From UHGV virus genome UHGV-0218009: a DNA stretch of 37,594 nt. One strand, written 5' to 3'. The stretch comes from a virus. Positions 4,619 through 21,982 of the stretch are shown here, piece after piece. Positions within the stretch are counted from its first letter, which is position 1. Every line of letters begins with the position of its first letter. Made by a program: the position numbers and the translations under genes. The notes beneath the pieces were generated by a model. It was not told where the DNA came from, did not search any database, and was given only the letters and a program-made list of their open reading frames with translations.

Positions 4619-4813
4619 ATGAAAGCAATTCGAGAAACACGATTGATAGGCGCATTTTTATTGATGATTGTGCTAGGTGTGTTATTGAAAAGCCACTTTT
4701 CAGTTCCAGTGTTGGCAACAATAAGTGTACCTCTTTTTATCCGTTGGTTTTTCAACTGGGACGAAGCGGAGTATCAGCATTTTCAAAAAAAGACAAAAAA
4801 AGCCCCACTTTAG
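4619..4813 (+). CDS. Small membrane protein (one TM helix), hypothetical
   Basis: Strong RBS AGGAGG. Hydrophobic LIGAFLLMIVLGVLL. Confidence 0.55.
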   Translation: MKAIRETRLIGAFLLMIVLGVLLKSHFSVPVLATISVPLFIRWFFNWDEAEYQHFQKKTKKAPL

Positions 4814-4885
4814 TTAGAGCTAAAGCAGGGAAAATAAAGTAAATAGAATCTAAATAAATTATATCACAGAAAGGAAGGCAATAAA

Positions 4886-5293
4886 ATGTCAAAAAATATT
4901 AATGTTCCTTTAAGTGGGATTAGTGAGGGAGGATTACAAGAACGATTTGATTATGAGCTTGCTCAAGTCATTAACAATATAAATGATCCTAATACAGATC
5001 CTACAAAAAAGAGAAAGATAACAATTGATTTAACGATTATTCCAGACGAATATCGTGAAGATATTTTGATTGATTATCAAGTGAAATCTAAATTAGTTCC
5101 AAGAGAAGCATTAACTTCAAAAATTATTATTGGTCAAGATGGTAAAGGAAAACCGTTAGCAAATGAATTGAAAAGTGGACAACGAGGCCAGATGTATTTC
5201 GATCCAGATGATTCTGAATTGAAAGATGATAAAGGCACACCAGTAGAAGAAATTGAAGAAACAGATAAAATAAAAAAATTTAAAACAAACTAG
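4886..5293 (+). CDS. Hypothetical early protein (135 aa)
   Basis: RBS AAAGGAAGG. No recognisable motif. Confidence 0.6.
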   Translation: MSKNINVPLSGISEGGLQERFDYELAQVINNINDPNTDPTKKRKITIDLTIIPDEYREDILIDYQVKSKLVPREALTSKIIIGQDGKGKPLANELKSGQRGQMYFDPDDSELKDDKGTPVEEIEETDKIKKFKTN

Positions 5294-6558: not shown

Positions 6559-6624
6559 TGAAAAAAGCGACTATGCCGCCAAGCAATTAGTCGCAAAAAC
6601 ATATATTGATAGGGGAATTATATC

Positions 6625-6879
6625 ATGAAAGTAGAATTTGATTCAATTGGGAGAATTCATTTACTTGATGAATCTTCGCCATATGGTTCTTTAATTTTTG
6701 AAAAAGACATTGAAAACGATCATGTTGCTGTGTATCAAGATAGCGAAGATGAAGAGGTTAGATTTGCATTTGAAAGTTTAGATGAATGTGCTTATTTCAA
6801 AAAATCTGAATTAATTGAAGGATTAGAAAAAGTTCTTTCATTGTTGAAAGAGGAGGAACGAAATGAATACTTGCAGTGA
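6625..6879 (+). CDS. Hypothetical acidic protein (84 aa)
   Basis: ORF lies within the co-directional early operon. Confidence 0.5.
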   Translation: MKVEFDSIGRIHLLDESSPYGSLIFEKDIENDHVAVYQDSEDEEVRFAFESLDECAYFKKSELIEGLEKVLSLLKEEERNEYLQ

Positions 6880-9143: not shown

Positions 9144-9950
9144 ATGGAAAGAGCGTTTAAAGGTATTTGGATTCCTAAAAATGTTTGGCTAGATAAAGAA
9201 CTGAGTTGGACTGAAAAATTTCTAATCGTTGAAATAGATAGTCTTGATAATGACGATGGATGTTTCGCTAGCAATGAGTATTTTTCAAATTTTTTCGGTC
9301 TAAGTAAAGACAGGGTTTCTAAACTTATATCTGGATTAAAAGAAAAGGGATACATTGATGTCAGTTATCAATATAAACCAGGTACAAAATCTATAGAAAG
9401 ACGTGTAGTTAAAATTACCGAGGGATATAGGCGAAAACAACTAGAGGGTATAGGTGAAAATAACTATAGGGGTATAGGCGAAAACGCCAAAGATAATAAT
9501 ACATTAATTAATAATACAAAGAATAATACAAAGAATATATATAGCGTTGAACAAAGTTCAACCATGTCTGAATTATTTGAAAAAGTTTGGAAAACATATC
9601 CGAAGAAAACCAATAAGAAAAAAGCCAAAGAGCAATTCTTAAAGAAAATTAAGTCAGATGAAGACTTCGAACGGTTTAAAACAGGATACAAAGATTATCT
9701 TAAGTATATCAAATTAAACGACTGGTATCATCCACAAGAATTGTTCCGCTGGATACGTGATGAACGTTTTAACGATGAATACGACTTGTCTGAAACGACA
9801 ACGCAAGCAAGATATACGAATCCTCCAGTTAGACAAGAGCAATTACCAGATTGGGTAAATGAACCAAAACAAGAAGAGGAAAAACTATCACCAGAAAAGC
9901 AAGCTGAACTTGATAGGCAAATAAAAGAATTTTTGGAGGGCAAGTCATGA
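9144..9950 (+). CDS. Phage replisome organizer / replication initiator (DnaD-like N-terminal domain)
   Basis: WxxKEL..TEKFLIVEIDSL..DGCFASNEYFSNFFGLSKDRVSKLISGLKEKGYI matches Phage_rep_org_N. Carries internal iterons. Confidence 0.75.
   Translation: MERAFKGIWIPKNVWLDKELSWTEKFLIVEIDSLDNDDGCFASNEYFSNFFGLSKDRVSKLISGLKEKGYIDVSYQYKPGTKSIERRVVKITEGYRRKQLEGIGENNYRGIGENAKDNNTLINNTKNNTKNIYSVEQSSTMSELFEKVWKTYPKKTNKKKAKEQFLKKIKSDEDFERFKTGYKDYLKYIKLNDWYHPQELFRWIRDERFNDEYDLSETTTQARYTNPPVRQEQLPDWVNEPKQEEEKLSPEKQAELDRQIKEFLEGKS
9423..9485 (+). repeat. Three iterons GG(G/A)TATAGG(C/T)GAAAA(C/T) at 23-24 bp phasing inside the rep gene; putative origin of replication
   Basis: Copies at 9423, 9446 and 9470, followed by the AT-rich stretch 9488..9545 with a 9-bp direct repeat aataatacaaag x2. 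Confidence 0.65.
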
Positions 9951-13144: not shown

Positions 13145-13681
13145 ATGAATAAACAAGAATTGATTGAAGAGTTAGAATGCTTAGAAGTTCCTACAGATAG
13201 CCTTGATTATTTGAAAGGTGCTAACTATGCTGTCGAAAAAGCAATTAGCTTAGCAAAACAACTAGATGAACCGAAAAAAGCTATATTACCTAAAACTGCT
13301 GATGATTTTATTGAAGAAAGTTTAGGAATGGGTTCTGATAAAGTTGATATTATCGGTTCCGCAGATTCTTTTTCACAAGAAATACCAGATGATGAATTTT
13401 CTTTGTGGTTTAAGTCGAATAGAGATTTATTCGTTGATGCATTAGCTAACGGATACGAAGTCAAGAAAGAGCCGCTTTATTATGTGGAGTTGCCCGATCT
13501 TAGAAGTTCGTCAAGCGACAATGTTTATGGATTAAGAAAAACATTGAATGGTGAAATAAGAATTGCTGTTTTTGATAAACAAAAGGTTGGTAAAACAAAA
13601 GAGTCACAACTCACAGAAAATCAAATCAAAGCAGTTGACGAGCGCTATTGGCCGTTTGCTGTGAAGTTGGAGGAAGAATAG
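13145..13681 (+). CDS. Hypothetical protein (178 aa)
   Basis: RBS GGAGG. Confidence 0.6.
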   Translation: MNKQELIEELECLEVPTDSLDYLKGANYAVEKAISLAKQLDEPKKAILPKTADDFIEESLGMGSDKVDIIGSADSFSQEIPDDEFSLWFKSNRDLFVDALANGYEVKKEPLYYVELPDLRSSSSDNVYGLRKTLNGEIRIAVFDKQKVGKTKESQLTENQIKAVDERYWPFAVKLEEE

Positions 13682-13831
13682 ATGAAAGATAAGAAATTTT
13701 CACCTCTAACAATTGTTTGTGTGATTATAGGCATATGCTGGATTGTCTCAATTGTGGGAATCGGATATTTTATTTCACATCCAGAAATAATTGGACACTG
13801 GTTTAGTCGTTTAATAAGTGGGTTCAAATAG
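13682..13831 (+). CDS. Small membrane protein (49 aa), not in the ORF track
   Basis: RBS GGAGGAAG. tagATG coupling. TM helix LTIVCVIIGICWIVSIVGIGYFI. Confidence 0.5.
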   Translation: MKDKKFSPLTIVCVIIGICWIVSIVGIGYFISHPEIIGHWFSRLISGFK

Positions 13832-13876
13832 TTTTGAAACCAATGTATTTTAGTTTTTACAATCGATAGTATAAAA

Positions 13877-13902
13877 AACTACCTAGTTTCCGCTAGGTAG
13901 TT
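13877..13902. terminator. 10-bp stem-loop (aactacctag/ctaggtagtt) preceded by an A6 tract
   Basis: Perfect inverted repeat. Contains the recurrent CTAGGTAG motif. Confidence 0.4.
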
Positions 13903-14133
13903 CTGTAAGAAATAATATTAAGTTTATTTTTTATAGTATTTTTATACCAAACCCATTATAAAAAATCAAGTACAAAAAAGCCAACCGACCACTGGTTGAC
14001 TAAGAAGAATATTTTACCAGAAAAGTGGTAGCTTGTGATATGTGAGGTTACTTTGCCCCAAACATTGGTCACAATAAAAATATTTTATCATGAGTAAAGA
14101 AAGCTGCCAACAAAAAAGCCAGATTGCTCTGGC

Positions 14134-14165
14134 TGTGGATAATGTGTGGATAACTTTGTGGAAAA
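14134..14165 (+). promoter_or_regulatory. Three tandem DnaA-box-like repeats TGTGGATAA / TGTGGATAA / TGTGGAAAA (reverse complement of TTATCCACA) at 11-12 bp phasing, upstream of arpU
   Basis: Two copies exactly match the consensus DnaA box. They lie 40-70 bp upstream of the arpU start. Confidence 0.5.
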
Positions 14166-14201
14166 GTCGTTATTATTATACCACAAAAGGAGCGATTTCA
14201 C

Positions 14202-14618
14202 TTGATTAAATTGCTAAAAGAAGTAGATTTTCGACAAACAAAAGCGAATGCCAGAAATGTGTTGAAGAATTTTAGACGTTTAGAGCGAATGGCTGGTCGC
14301 TCTTTGATAGATTTAAAATCACCAATTATTACAGATATGCCTAAAAGCCAAAGCCACGGAAACAAAACAGAAGATGCACTGGTACAATTAGCTGATGCAG
14401 AAGCAGAAAGAGACGCAATTTTATCTGCGCTTATGGCATTAAGCCTAACTAGCAGACAAATTTTGCATTATAGTTTCTGTGTGCAGGACCATTACTCTAA
14501 TTACAAGATAGCTAGGGAAGTTGGATATTCCGAAAGAAGTATTCAACGCATGAAATCAGAAGCTTTGATTGAATTTGCTGAAGCTTATCGAAATGGAAAA
14601 ATAATTGCCTATAAATAA
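14202..14618 (+). CDS. arpU: ArpU-family phage late transcriptional regulator (sigma-70 region-4-like)
   Basis: TTG start with AAGGAG RBS. Size and sequence pattern fit the ArpU family. Position upstream of the packaging module. Confidence 0.7.
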   Translation: MIKLLKEVDFRQTKANARNVLKNFRRLERMAGRSLIDLKSPIITDMPKSQSHGNKTEDALVQLADAEAERDAILSALMALSLTSRQILHYSFCVQDHYSNYKIAREVGYSERSIQRMKSEALIEFAEAYRNGKIIAYK

Positions 14619-14622
14619 AATT

Positions 14623-14651
14623 TTGGCGGTTTTTTGGCGGAAAGTTGGCGG
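14623..14651 (+). promoter_or_regulatory. Three direct TTGGCGG repeats at exact 11-bp phasing immediately after the arpU stop, followed by a -10-like TATTATGGT
   Basis: Copies at 14623..14629, 14634..14640 and 14645..14651. These are the only occurrences of the motif noticed in the window. Confidence 0.45.
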
Positions 14652-15002
14652 TTTTTATCAATATTTAGGTGTTATTATGGTAGTGTCGAAAGATAAGGAG
14701 ACGAGGGTAAGGCATGCATTACCTATCTTAGCTCCGTTTCGCTTATTTTTTGAGGCTACCTATAAAAAATAAAGAATAAGGATGTGGAAAATCCAGTTCT
14801 TTCTGTCTCGTTTAGTCTAGGTAGCAAATATTGCATATTGCAATAAACTTGGCATTAAGCTTACACGTAGACGTACGCCGAAAGCACTTGTCAAGATAGC
14901 GCTATGTAGTTTGCAATGATCACTCACAAATCAGACGTTCTCAAACTAAAAGAAATGGGGTGTAATTCCTCTCTCTTTTTTCTACAGGTTTGTGAGTGTT
15001 AA

Positions 15003-15074
15003 TGGGATATAGCTTAACTGGTAGAGCAGCGGTCTCCAAAACCGTCGGTATAGGTTCGAGTCCTATTGTTCCGG
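15003..15074 (+). tRNA. tRNA-Trp (anticodon CCA)
   Basis: Canonical D-arm GCTT-AACTGGTA-GAGC. Anticodon stem GCGGT/ACCGT with loop CTCCAAA. T-arm ATAGG-TTCGAGT-CCTAT. The acceptor TGGGATA/TGTTCCG has three G-U pairs. No encoded CCA. Confidence 0.55.
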
Positions 15075-19228: not shown

Positions 19229-20498
19229 AACATCTGTTGTTTTCAAATTCACATCGTTTTCTAAAAAGCAGAAGCAAGTTTTATCTTGGTGGAAACATCC
19301 CAAGTATAAAGATAAAGAAGCTATTATTTGTGATGGGTCTGTTCGTGCTGGTAAAACAGTTATTATGTCGCTATCTTACATCTTTTGGGCAATGGAAAGC
19401 TATGATGAAGATCAATTCGGAATGGCTGGTAAAACAATTGGTTCATTAAGGCGTAACGTTATACGGCCATTAAAAAAGATGCTTAGGGGTCGTGGCTATA
19501 CTGTTAAAGACAATCGAACAGATAATATCCTTGAAATAACTAAAAATAATAAAACAAATTATTTCTTTTTATTTGGTGGTAAAGATGAAGCTTCGCAAGA
19601 TTTGGTGCAAGGTCTAACTGCAGCTGGATTTTTCTTTGATGAAGTGGCGCTTATGCCACAATCATTTGTAAACCAAGCAACAGCACGTTTATCTGTAGAT
19701 GGTGCTAAATCATGGTTTAACTGTAATCCTGCTGGACCTCATCATTGGTTCAAACTTGAATGGTTAGACAAGCTAACAGAAAAGCATGCTATTCGCATTC
19801 ACTTTACTATGGAAGATAATCCTTCGCTTAGTGAAAGAGTAATTAATCGTTACAAACGAATGTATTCAGGAGTTTTTTATGACAGGTATATTCGTGGATT
19901 ATGGGTATTATCTGAAGGAATTATTTTTGACAACTTTGATGCGGAAACGATGGTAAAAGAACCTCCCAAAAACGCTATAGCTAGTCAATATTACGTATCT
20001 ATAGACTATGGAACTCAAAATGCTACAGTCTTTTTGTTATGGGCTAAATATGAAGAAAATTGGTATTGCATTGATGAGTATTATTACTCTGGTCGTGATG
20101 AATCAAAACAAAAAAGTGATGATAAATATTTGAAAGACCTGAATTCTTTTGTAGAAGGAAAAAAAGTTAAAATTATTGTGGATCCGTCAGCAGCTTCGTT
20201 TATTGCATTACTTAGAGAGAATGGATACAAAGTTATAAAAGCCAAAAATAATGTTATTGACGGCATTCGTGCAACTCAAACAGCAATGAATGAAGGAAAG
20301 ATTTATTTTTCTAGTAACTGTAAAAATTTATTTGCAGAATTTGCATCATATATTTGGGATGAAAAAGCGGCAGATAGAGGCGAAGACAAGCCTATAAAAC
20401 AACATGATCACGCGTGTGATGCGCTAAGATACTTTGTTTACACCATTTTAAATAAATCACGAGGAATTAAGCTACAGAGCGTGAAGGGGGTTATTTAA
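19206..20498 (+). CDS. terL: Terminase large subunit
   Basis: Walker A CDGSVRAGKT, ATPase plus RNaseH-like nuclease domain. The start is ambiguous (19188, 19206 or 19209; GAGGTG RBS at 19197). Confidence 0.9.
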   Translation: MMTISKRKTSVVFKFTSFSKKQKQVLSWWKHPKYKDKEAIICDGSVRAGKTVIMSLSYIFWAMESYDEDQFGMAGKTIGSLRRNVIRPLKKMLRGRGYTVKDNRTDNILEITKNNKTNYFFLFGGKDEASQDLVQGLTAAGFFFDEVALMPQSFVNQATARLSVDGAKSWFNCNPAGPHHWFKLEWLDKLTEKHAIRIHFTMEDNPSLSERVINRYKRMYSGVFYDRYIRGLWVLSEGIIFDNFDAETMVKEPPKNAIASQYYVSIDYGTQNATVFLLWAKYEENWYCIDEYYYSGRDESKQKSDDKYLKDLNSFVEGKKVKIIVDPSAASFIALLRENGYKVIKAKNNVIDGIRATQTAMNEGKIYFSSNCKNLFAEFASYIWDEKAADRGEDKPIKQHDHACDALRYFVYTILNKSRGIKLQSVKGVI

Positions 20499-21982
20499 TG
20501 ACAGAAGAAGTAAGTAGACCAAATACTGAAAGTAAAATACGTGAATTCGTTGACCTTTTAGGAAATCGTGTCTTTTATTGTGATAAAAACGCAAAGATTG
20601 ACGAACGCTTGGTGGATAAATACATTAATAAGCATCGGAAATTAATAGGGTTTTACGAAGAATTAGAAAAGCTCTACAACGGTCAACATGATATTTATTA
20701 TCAAAAAAATAAAGGAATTGGAAAGCCTGACCATCGAATTGCAGTCAACTTTGCCCGTTATGTTGTAGATAGTTCTGCAGCTTTCTTTAACGGTAAACCA
20801 ACAAAGATTACTCATCCAGATGGTGAGGTAAAAGAATTTGTTCAAAATTTCCGTAAACGAAATGAGGAAGAAGACAACGATGCAGAGCTTTCTAAGCTAA
20901 CTGCTATTTATGGGCATGCTTATAAGCTTTTATATCAAAACGAAGAAGCAGAAACGTGCGTGACTTATTTAAAACCTACGCAAGGATTCATTGTTTACGC
21001 AGATGACTTATTAAAAGCGCCTATGTTTGCGGTTCTTTACAACAAAATGGCAAAGGACGAGCTAACAGCAACTGTTTATCCACAAAATAGCACAGAAACG
21101 TTTATTTTTACACAAGACAAGACTTCTAAACGATTGGAAACTAAGAGAGGACCAACCGTTTTTCAGAAAGCCTTGTCTTATTTATTAGGTGGAAAAGAGG
21201 CAATCGCTAATCCGTACGGTGAAGTGCCTATGATTGAGTTTATGGAAAATGACGAACGACAAGGACGTATTGAGTCTGTGTGGTCGCTGATTAATAATTA
21301 CAACGAAGCTCTATCAGAAAAAGCGAACGACGTGAGTTATTTTGCGGACGCTTACCTGAAAATGATAGGAGTAGATTTAGCTGACGAAAACGTCGCTGCT
21401 TATTTACGAGATAACCGAGTGATTAATAGTGCCACTCCTTTATCTGAAGGTGAAACAGTAGACATTGATTTTTTAGATAAACCTAGTTCGGATACAACAC
21501 AAGAAAATCTGTTAGACCGATTAGAACGATTAATCTATCAAATGTCTATGACTTATAATGCAAACGATGAAAGTTTTAGTAATAACGCTTCAGGTATTTC
21601 GCTAGAATTTAAAATGCAAAATCCTAGAAACCTCGCACAAGCAAAAGCTAGGAAGTTTAAAAAAGCATATGCGCAAATGTACAAAATGATTTTTTCATTG
21701 CCTACGAATGTACCTGCTAATAAAGCGAAAGAATGGTTTAATTTAGAATACACTTTTGACTTTAATATTCCGCGCAATATTAAAGACGAAGCGGAAACTG
21801 CACAAAAACTTGAAGGGATTGTTTCAAGAGAAACGCAATTAGGCGTATTATCGATTGTTTCTGACGTGACCCAAGAAATGGAACGTATAAAGGACGAAGA
21901 AACCGAAGAACGTTTAAATCCACAAGTTGATTTTGGTAAATTTACTCAAGCTACGGAAGAAGTGACCGAAGAACATGAGTAA
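20498..21982 (+). CDS. Portal protein
   Basis: 494 aa protein immediately after terL. RBS AAGGGGG. SPP1-like portal architecture inferred from size and position. Confidence 0.8.
   Translation: MTEEVSRPNTESKIREFVDLLGNRVFYCDKNAKIDERLVDKYINKHRKLIGFYEELEKLYNGQHDIYYQKNKGIGKPDHRIAVNFARYVVDSSAAFFNGKPTKITHPDGEVKEFVQNFRKRNEEEDNDAELSKLTAIYGHAYKLLYQNEEAETCVTYLKPTQGFIVYADDLLKAPMFAVLYNKMAKDELTATVYPQNSTETFIFTQDKTSKRLETKRGPTVFQKALSYLLGGKEAIANPYGEVPMIEFMENDERQGRIESVWSLINNYNEALSEKANDVSYFADAYLKMIGVDLADENVAAYLRDNRVINSATPLSEGETVDIDFLDKPSSDTTQENLLDRLERLIYQMSMTYNANDESFSNNASGISLEFKMQNPRNLAQAKARKFKKAYAQMYKMIFSLPTNVPANKAKEWFNLEYTFDFNIPRNIKDEAETAQKLEGIVSRETQLGVLSIVSDVTQEMERIKDEETEERLNPQVDFGKFTQATEEVTEEHE

Follow-up and report, generated by a model that had tools for sequence, protein, structure and literature searches.

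Consensus DnaA boxes within a putative antisense-promoter cassette in the leader of the late activator gene arpU of an Enterococcus faecalis phage

What are DnaA boxes doing immediately before the gene that switches a phage to packaging and lysis? The question is raised by UHGV-0218009, a viral sequence of 37,594 nucleotides (the window, meaning the whole stretch analysed), in which three copies of the binding motif of the host protein DnaA stand upstream of arpU. The window, 37.6 kb long, represents a temperate siphophage of Enterococcus faecalis that belongs to the phiFL/phiEf11 type. In many phages of Gram-positive bacteria, among them the transducing phiFL phages of E. faecalis, activators of the ArpU family are the one trigger known for the packaging and lysis genes, and arpU of phiFL2A is required for late transcription (PMC3753634). 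The timing of ArpU itself is poorly understood; in the published view, arpU lies at the end of a cI-controlled early transcript. We found that the boxes fall within the leader of arpU and, on the opposite strand, within the first 35 nt of a predicted antisense unit, outside any arpU promoter. Our preferred reading, to which we assign a probability of roughly 0.45, is that they are host DnaA sites in a portable antisense-promoter cassette, and that DnaA occupancy there sets the amount or timing of ArpU. On this reading, host DnaA may modulate the turn of the phage to packaging and lysis.

Clustered DnaA boxes and their candidate binder

On the plus strand, positions 14134-14165 read TGTGGATAA tg TGTGGATAA ctt TGTGGAAAA. 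On the minus strand, boxes 1 and 2 are 9/9 matches to the consensus, and box 3, like the other two, fits TTWTNCACA, the stringent DnaA consensus as it is quoted for Schaper and Messer. All three are co-oriented, 11 and 12 bp apart from start to start, with gaps of 2 and 3 bp. A sequence-only reading of this DNA had described three consensus boxes in tandem at 11-12 bp, which the motif fit and the simulations below confirm; it had put them 40-70 bp before the arpU start, and here the upstream placement stands while the distance to the TTG codon (14202) is corrected to 37-68 nt. Closely spaced co-oriented boxes favour cooperative DnaA binding, as in oriC arrays. The head-to-tail order with 2-3 bp gaps is the layout typical of such cooperative arrays, binding itself being predicted.

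The same reading had proposed a scan of motif density across the genome. The exact word proved not to be common: a first-order Markov model predicts 0.37 copies of the exact 9-mer per window, and 3 were seen (P about 0.0025), one of them, at 21076, on the other strand. Sites with at most one mismatch numbered 17 against 10.7 +/- 3.3 expected, no clear enrichment. Same-strand clusters of at least three such sites within 40 bp appeared in 0 of 400 simulated sequences (Markov-1), and clusters of at least two in 4.75% of them. It is the clustering, rather than the word frequency, that is non-random. The distant copy, TTATCCACA at 21076-21084, has a second TTWTNCACA match 30 bp away on the plus strand (21106-21114), both inside the open reading frame (ORF) 20498-21982; this pair may be due to chance.

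Host DnaA is the favoured candidate for the protein predicted to bind these sites. In the table of Pelliciari et al., the oriC modules of E. faecalis V583, 62 and OG1RF contain AAAAGGTGT (written 3' to 5'), which is TTTTCCACA, the variant found in box 3. It is the first-listed and better-conserved box of the V583 oriC unwinding module, and box 3 can be called a native E. faecalis box because it is listed there, boxes 1 and 2 having the universal consensus. For origins of this kind, activity of E. faecalis DnaA has been shown in vitro (PMC8287927), and we infer that it also binds the arpU leader in vivo. The early regions of phages carrying the boxes are mosaic. One carrier whose whole early region was compared (L218) has hardly any early ORF in common with the window, and the early-region comparison found no ORF that was common to all carriers and absent from the box-less phiFL2A.

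The antisense unit in the arpU leader

We compared the regions upstream of arpU in 79 close IMG/VR relatives, in 4 GenBank phages and, from the genomes of other Enterococcus species, in the 23 of 26 loci that were usable. All that is conserved among them is a short element beside the ribosome-binding site (RBS), ATTATAnCA; read on the minus strand, it is the extended -10 promoter element TGnTATAAT. In E. faecalis, tgnTAtaaT precedes 96% of mapped transcription start sites (TSSs), and a -35 box is present at only about 4% (PMC7724050). The exact antisense element TGNTATAAT occurs in 40 of 45 unique arpU leaders, taken from E. faecalis phages and the genomes of about 17 other Enterococcus species, at 15-27 nt (mostly 18-19) from the arpU start codon. 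A hairpin with a T-run follows the promoter in 36 of these 40 leaders, 26-90 nt away and mostly at 39-56. In the window itself the exact TGNTATAAT occurs only 4 times, every time on the minus strand, and there is none on the sense strand near arpU. Judged by these features, a head-on antisense unit is present in nearly all Enterococcus ArpU phages.

A start site of this kind has been mapped in a homologous prophage. The differential RNA sequencing (dRNA-seq) TSS table of PMC7724050 covers prophage pp4 of V583, whose arpU is EF2024. Its antisense TSS 1952877 is enriched by terminator exonuclease (TEX), has a step height of 178 and an enrichment of 26.6, and is flagged 'putative asRNA' (antisense RNA; PMC7724050); it stands unremarked in the supplementary table. 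The 50 nt upstream of this TSS, TTAACAATAGAATCAAGTGAAATCGCTCCTTTTATGGTATAATAATTTATA, are the reverse complement of the arpU start, the RBS and the conserved element (TGGTATAAT). The site is 35 nt before the arpU start codon, inside the mapped 144-nt 5' untranslated region of arpU, the sense TSSs of arpU preceding that codon by 144 and 293 nt. For the E. faecium-type arpU, an antisense TSS was not found in the rows examined of the tables of Michaux et al.

By homology to V583, the antisense TSS of the window is placed at A14167, the 8th nt after TATAAT and 35 nt before the arpU start codon. The predicted RNA has the layout 5'-AC-UUUUCCACA-AAG-UUAUCCACA-CA-UUAUCCACA-GCCAGAGCAAUCUGGC-UUUUU and folds with -11.2 kcal/mol (z = -3.8), with the hairpin at its end. 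Pairing in the terminator stem is kept in relatives by double changes (GCCAGA/TCTGGC vs GTCGGA/TCCGAC). On the plus strand, every hairpin in 13832-14201 is preceded by an A-run and lacks a T-run behind it; since all are terminators for the minus strand only, read-through on the plus strand from upstream is likely. The boxes span +3 to +34 of the predicted antisense unit and are at the same time within the arpU leader, and with the TSS at 14167 the footprint of RNA polymerase at the predicted promoter overlaps them.

The sequence-only reading had taken the boxes to lie in the arpU promoter. This view was given up: the conserved element that adjoins them is the minus-strand extended -10, and the sense TSSs of V583 lie far upstream. 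A sense-strand arpU promoter at the boxes (TGGATA-18-TATTAT) was considered and rejected, as the bases that are invariant across lineages are those of the minus-strand TGnTATAAT and V583 has no sense TSS near the RBS.

On the sense strand, the terminator segment 14117-14134 carries an anti-Shine-Dalgarno (anti-SD) element, in which CAGATTGCTCT pairs with GGAGCGATTTC. Strong pairing between this hairpin and the Shine-Dalgarno (SD) sequence plus spacer of arpU (14186-14199) extends over 8-11 bp, with compensatory changes between lineages: the partners are GGAATCGCTCC and GGAGCGATTT in phiFL3A and phiEf11, CGGATCGCTCC and GGAGCGGTTTG in several species, CAGACCGTCCC and GGGGCGGTTTG in E. thailandicus, and GAGATTTCTCC and GGAGGAATCT in one further lineage. 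The pairing has z < -2 relative to shuffled sequences in 21 of 36 leaders, the window having -12 kcal/mol and z = -2.2; the anti-SD loci are L001, L004, L221-L225, L229-L233, L240 and L241. It is absent from the pp4-type leader of V583 and from a box-carrying variant without the hairpin. The covariation suggests that arpU translation may be controlled by sequestration of the SD sequence.

Boxes and promoter travel together. A scan of IMG/VR with the exact pattern gave 14 contigs with the cassette, and a second scan, for which the box-3 tail and the promoter alone served as anchors, returned those 14 and 1 more; boxes 1 and 2 are perfect in 15/15. The cassette extends from the first box through ...TATACCACAAA, antisense promoter included, and box 3 stands at +3 of that promoter, a fixed distance, in all 15. 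Within it, 0 of 21 free box columns are variable, as compared to 7 of 13 spacer or flank columns (Fisher p = 3e-4), and by this measure the boxes appear to be under purifying selection. The cassette was found behind three unrelated upstream sequences, and it precedes two ArpU-family alleles that are only 24% identical, both matching TIGR01637 and phrog_248. The second allele, of 155 aa (TIGR01637, 48.7 bits), is downstream of the cassette in three contigs. Promoter and boxes thus behave in these comparisons as a portable cassette, exchangeable between arpU alleles, and in about one in ten E. faecalis relatives DnaA boxes appear to fill the otherwise free-to-vary body of the antisense unit. In one contig (L213, IMGVR_UViG_2510461065_000003) the cassette has no ArpU gene after it, and the sequence continues directly into a late-promoter region like that of the other arpU allele type; the contig is probably a deletion derivative or a defective prophage. 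The features of the locus are collected in Table 1.

Table 1. Positions of the features at the arpU locus in the window
Feature	Position	Strand	Remarks
DnaA box 1	14134..14142	-	TGTGGATAA on plus, consensus TTATCCACA on minus; +26..+34 of the antisense unit
DnaA box 2	14145..14153	-	TGTGGATAA on plus, TTATCCACA on minus; +15..+23 of the antisense unit
DnaA box 3	14157..14165	-	TGTGGAAAA on plus, TTTTCCACA on minus; +3..+11 of the antisense unit
P_as, extended -10 promoter	14175..14183	-	TGGTATAAT; perfect TGnTATAAT; promoter of the antisense unit
Predicted antisense RNA, ~56 nt	14112..14167	-	ACUUUUCCACAAAGUUAUCCACACAUUAUCCACAGCCAGAGCAAUCUGGCUUUUU; TSS A14167 by homology to V583 TSS 1952877
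Intrinsic terminator hairpin	14117..14134, with T-run to 14112	-	AGCCAGA gcaa TCTGGCT, then TTTTTG; terminator scan: minus strand only, no T-run on plus
arpU Shine-Dalgarno sequence	14186..14192	+	AAAGGAG; SD and spacer GGAGCGATTT conserved, complementary to hairpin loop and 3' arm
arpU	14202..14618	+	138 aa; transcriptional activator of the late (packaging/lysis) genes, ArpU family; start codon TTG at 14202
ArpU sites of the late promoter	14623..14651	+	TTGGCGG x3, direct repeats 11 bp apart; outside the DnaA cassette

DnaA control of arpU and other explanations

How might DnaA act here? Transcription from the minus-strand promoter (14183-14175) would pass through the three boxes and end at the terminator (14134-14117), giving an antisense RNA of ~56 nt in the arpU leader. 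DnaA at +3 to +34 would overlap the RNA polymerase footprint and would block initiation or escape, repression of the antisense promoter being the simplest expectation; the array may also be a roadblock to sense transcripts heading for arpU from upstream. The sense/antisense balance in the leader would then fix ArpU amount or timing, and hence the late switch, according to DnaA occupancy, which would itself follow host replication status or the dilution of DnaA over replicating phage genomes. The arpU leader would add two layers to ArpU timing, a general one (the conserved head-on antisense unit and the anti-SD hairpin) and an accessory one (the DnaA boxes within). A bolder form of this idea, which we consider doubtful, holds that a temperate enterococcal phage uses host DnaA as an input to its late switch: the three-box operator would set both the sense/antisense balance and, via the anti-SD hairpin, ArpU translation, lysis commitment would read host replication or phage copy number, and the cassette would be mobile between unrelated arpU alleles. 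If DnaA does act at this locus, it would directly, and testably, link host replication physiology to phage lysis timing in a clinically important bacterium, and the cassette would be a compact means of engineering phage timing.

Several points weigh against control of ArpU by DnaA. The boxes are found in about 8 of 79 close ArpU loci (about 10%), about 70 of the 79 being without them; among the GenBank phages only OR846605 has them. They are upstream of arpU in 0 of 23 examined loci from other Enterococcus species, where a single TTTTCCACA was seen in two E. spodopteracolus loci. Because most relatives do without them, the boxes are an accessory, minority allele rather than the core of the switch. 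No more than 8 haplotypes of the cassette are represented in the 15 carrier contigs (24 locus entries were compared, some of which share a contig), and the constraint test rests on few independent lineages. The V583 prophage pp4 is a relative without boxes, and its region upstream of arpU differs from that of the window; the antisense TSS is mapped in V583 and predicted in the window phage. High-affinity boxes might stay constantly occupied and carry little regulatory information. Finally, the antisense RNA could repress arpU, by interference or by RNase III cleavage of the duplex, or could activate it, by covering the anti-SD segment and so freeing the SD sequence, and a net effect of DnaA on ArpU could for this reason have either sign.

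The boxes might instead soak up host DnaA as the phage genome amplifies, at three strong sites per copy, which would lower free DnaA and stop host initiation or shift the DnaA regulon, the position in the leader being incidental. If DnaA does not act on arpU, the boxes would still be a clean natural example of a phage DnaA decoy. The body of the antisense unit varies freely in sequence and length among relatives and would be a permissive place for insertion, and titration by plasmid-borne boxes and by datA is established (PMC5835720). Tandem consensus pairs phased at 11 bp are also common in viral contigs: with a 2-bp gap (TGTGGATAANNTGTGGATAA) they occur in at least 120 IMG/VR contigs of very different GC content (L006-L125), often in arrays of 3-11 boxes, where a rough back-of-envelope estimate gives a chance expectation of a few matches for the 18-base pattern. 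In the 120 listed, 93 are intergenic; their neighbours gave 117 clusters from 144 proteins, too diverse to be informative, and PHROG annotation of the largest clusters was uninformative as well. Known titration loci, such as datA and the DnaA-box clusters of B. subtilis, have more boxes and accessory sites than the three per genome seen here. In E. coli, where these loci are defined, DARS has a particular pattern of box orientation and datA an IHF site with at least 4-5 boxes; the three boxes of the window all point the same way. The boxes are moreover always linked to the antisense promoter at a fixed distance (15 cassettes, two arpU alleles), a linkage that a pure decoy does not need, and on balance we regard titration as unlikely. 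A neutral, recently spread variant of the leader spacer would account for a minority allele with few haplotypes, yet the boxes are invariant while the adjacent spacers vary (p = 3e-4) and the cassette is intact across three upstream contexts and two arpU alleles; absence of any function is in our view improbable.

Equally improbable is an element that acts as RNA, through structure or an RNA-binding factor; the antisense RNA would use its UUAUCCACA x3, or the arpU leader its UGUGGAUAA x3, and the match to DnaA boxes would be a coincidence. Judged by the V583 TSS and the conservation of the promoter, transcription of at least the minus strand would cover the repeats; box 1 of the sense leader pairs with the complement of the antisense -10 (UGUGGAUAAU/AUUAUACCACA); and the leader fold beats shuffled sequences (-28.2 kcal/mol, z = -3.0). 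A coincidence is hard to accept when the repeated 9-mer is the exact DnaA consensus, rare as it is in 37.6 kb, and the remaining copy is the variant of the host oriC. No other lineage conserves the sequence of the antisense RNA body, so the RNA sequence of the unit seems unimportant. Some other DNA-binding protein, a phage regulator or a different host factor, could recognise TGTGGAWAA repeats, and three direct repeats about 11 bp apart are indeed also the site architecture of ArpU/RinA/LtrC (PMC3753634; window 14623-14651). ArpU was tried as the binder and rejected: the boxes are 9-mers before arpU and independent of the allele, preceding alleles only 24% identical, which makes ArpU autoregulation unlikely, and the real ArpU sites are TTGGCGG x3 downstream of the gene. 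With no early ORF common to all carriers and absent from non-carriers, another operator is very unlikely.

Least credible, and highly unlikely, is the auxiliary origin that the sequence-only reading had offered, or a DnaA-dependent unwinding site. Tandem co-oriented boxes are the first element of a bacterial origin unwinding module, and the flanks are AT-rich. The canonical layout is lacking, however: DnaA-trios should lie 3' of TTATCCACA after about 4 bp (an orientation rule derived from the entries for B. subtilis and E. faecalis in the basal unwinding system (BUS) table, with at least 3 trios required), and a GC hairpin (GCCAGAGCAATCTGGC) is found there. Only an A-run meets the permissive (.A.)3 pattern, at the 16-nt limit, and the TTATTATTA run is on the wrong side. 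The probable replication origin of the phage is at 9420-9537, where three ~23-bp iterons AGGGRTATAGGYGAAAAC and, after them, AT-rich AATAATACAAAG repeats lie within the gene of the HTH_36/DnaD-like initiator (9144-9950), and the carriers differ in their replication modules. GC skew across the window gave no origin signal. DnaA sites within the antisense-promoter cassette thus remain our preferred explanation of the boxes.

Genome setting and known systems compared

GenBank phage records matched by 13600-14800 are Enterococcus phages in 21 of 21 cases. Lysogeny genes occupy the minus strand at the left end of the window and are followed by the early genes (Erf, DUF1351, an HNH-like nuclease, the HTH_36/DnaD-like replication initiator, RusA and methylases); downstream of arpU are a tRNA-Trp, a ParB-methylase gene and the structural genes. 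The arpU product matches TIGR01637 (135.7 bits) and phrog_248, and the gene is 92-93% identical in DNA to arpU of phiFL2A. A Pfam search with both ArpU alleles gave no match, while NCBIfam and PHROGs match both. ArpU of phiFL2A binds three 7-nt repeats just distal to arpU (PMC3753634). In the window, TGTTATTAT at 14670-14678 after TTGGCGG x3 is the ArpU-dependent late promoter described for phiFL2A, and in V583 a TSS is mapped after ...TGGCGGAAAGTTGGCGG...TGTTATTATGGTAGTG, at the equivalent of G14685. The tRNA-Trp (CCA) at 15003-15074 is in a non-coding stretch of ~1 kb between arpU and the ParB-methylase gene, and only this tRNA passed the gathering thresholds of Rfam. A permissive Rfam search of 13800-14800 gave chance-level matches only, the best relevant one, to Enterococcus sRNA 1C, scoring 20.7 bits where the gathering score is 90.

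Other candidate antisense units were noticed in the window. On the minus strand, TTGGCA-17-TAAAAT (with TG) at 14110..14082 is followed by a terminator at 14001..13979, defining a unit of about 100 nt with no ORF and a weak Rfam match to Enterococcus sRNA 1C (E = 2.9); TTGGCT-18-TATAAT at 13984..13955 is followed by a hairpin at 13907..13872. V583 has strong TSSs in the antisense direction at comparable places, 1953002 (height 1603) and 1953273 (height 92897). A strong minus-strand promoter with a predicted RNA of 50-60 nt and an intrinsic terminator is also present at two plus-strand gene starts (4790-4889 and 6560-6625), abutting or overlapping the start codon: ORF 4886-5293 has the antisense TTGACA-17-TGATATAAT, and at ORF 6625-6879 the antisense TGATATAAT overlaps the ATG. 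The repetition of this design at plus-strand gene starts gives the impression that lytic operons are generally insulated by head-on antisense units.

In the literature on DnaA boxes with late genes or prophages, and on antisense control of ArpU or RinA, no direct precedent was found. We found no account of DnaA boxes at a regulator of the ArpU/RinA type, as the sequence-only reading had also maintained for ArpU-type phages, nor of an antisense or anti-SD leader. Partial likenesses exist. The oriC basal unwinding system (PMC8287927) shares with the window tandem co-oriented boxes and the TTTTCCACA variant of E. faecalis oriC; the window differs in having a terminator hairpin in place of the canonical trios and short GC spacer on the correct side. 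Like the DnaA boxes, the Ltr (RinA/ArpU/LtrC) repeats come as three direct copies beside arpU, phased at about 11 bp (PMC3753634), but they are activator-specific 7-mers just after the ltr gene, and the DnaA boxes are 9-mers before arpU that do not depend on the ArpU allele. The injection-stop region of T5 has conserved pairs of consensus or near-consensus DnaA boxes, 3 bp apart, in non-origin, non-coding DNA, for which binding of host DnaA was proposed (bioRxiv 10.1101/866236). There, eight boxes are set in inverted repeats, and the role, likewise a proposal, is in DNA injection with no link to the transcription of a regulator.

DnaA also controls transcription in its host. The dnaA gene is autoregulated, and members of the B. 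subtilis DnaA regulon, e.g. sda, have clusters of consensus boxes at their promoters, through which transcription responds to DnaA activity and replication stress. As a transcription factor for host genes, DnaA responds to replication status (PMC8203912). In these genes and in the window, clusters of boxes overlap or adjoin a promoter; the window's target is a phage antisense promoter and leader, and its response to DnaA is predicted only. The PaQ promoter of lambda, which lies inside the late regulator gene Q and is activated by CII, makes antisense RNA that tunes the late switch. Like PaQ, the arpU antisense promoter opposes a late-gene regulator; unlike PaQ, it is in the leader, looks constitutive with its perfect extended -10, drives an RNA of 26-90 nt and is linked to an anti-SD hairpin. 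The oop RNA of lambda is antisense to cII mRNA. In vitro, DnaA protects two sequences that resemble DnaA boxes downstream of its promoter pO (PMC3985674, citing Szalewska-Palasz et al. 1998). In pO/oop as in the arpU leader, established or predicted DnaA sites closely follow the promoter of a short unit that runs antisense to a phage regulator, a comparable layout for which lambda is a precedent. In lambda, the host is Gram-negative, the target is the lysogeny regulator cII and the sites merely resemble the consensus, whereas in the window the target would be the late activator, and three consensus boxes occupy +3 to +34 of the predicted antisense unit.

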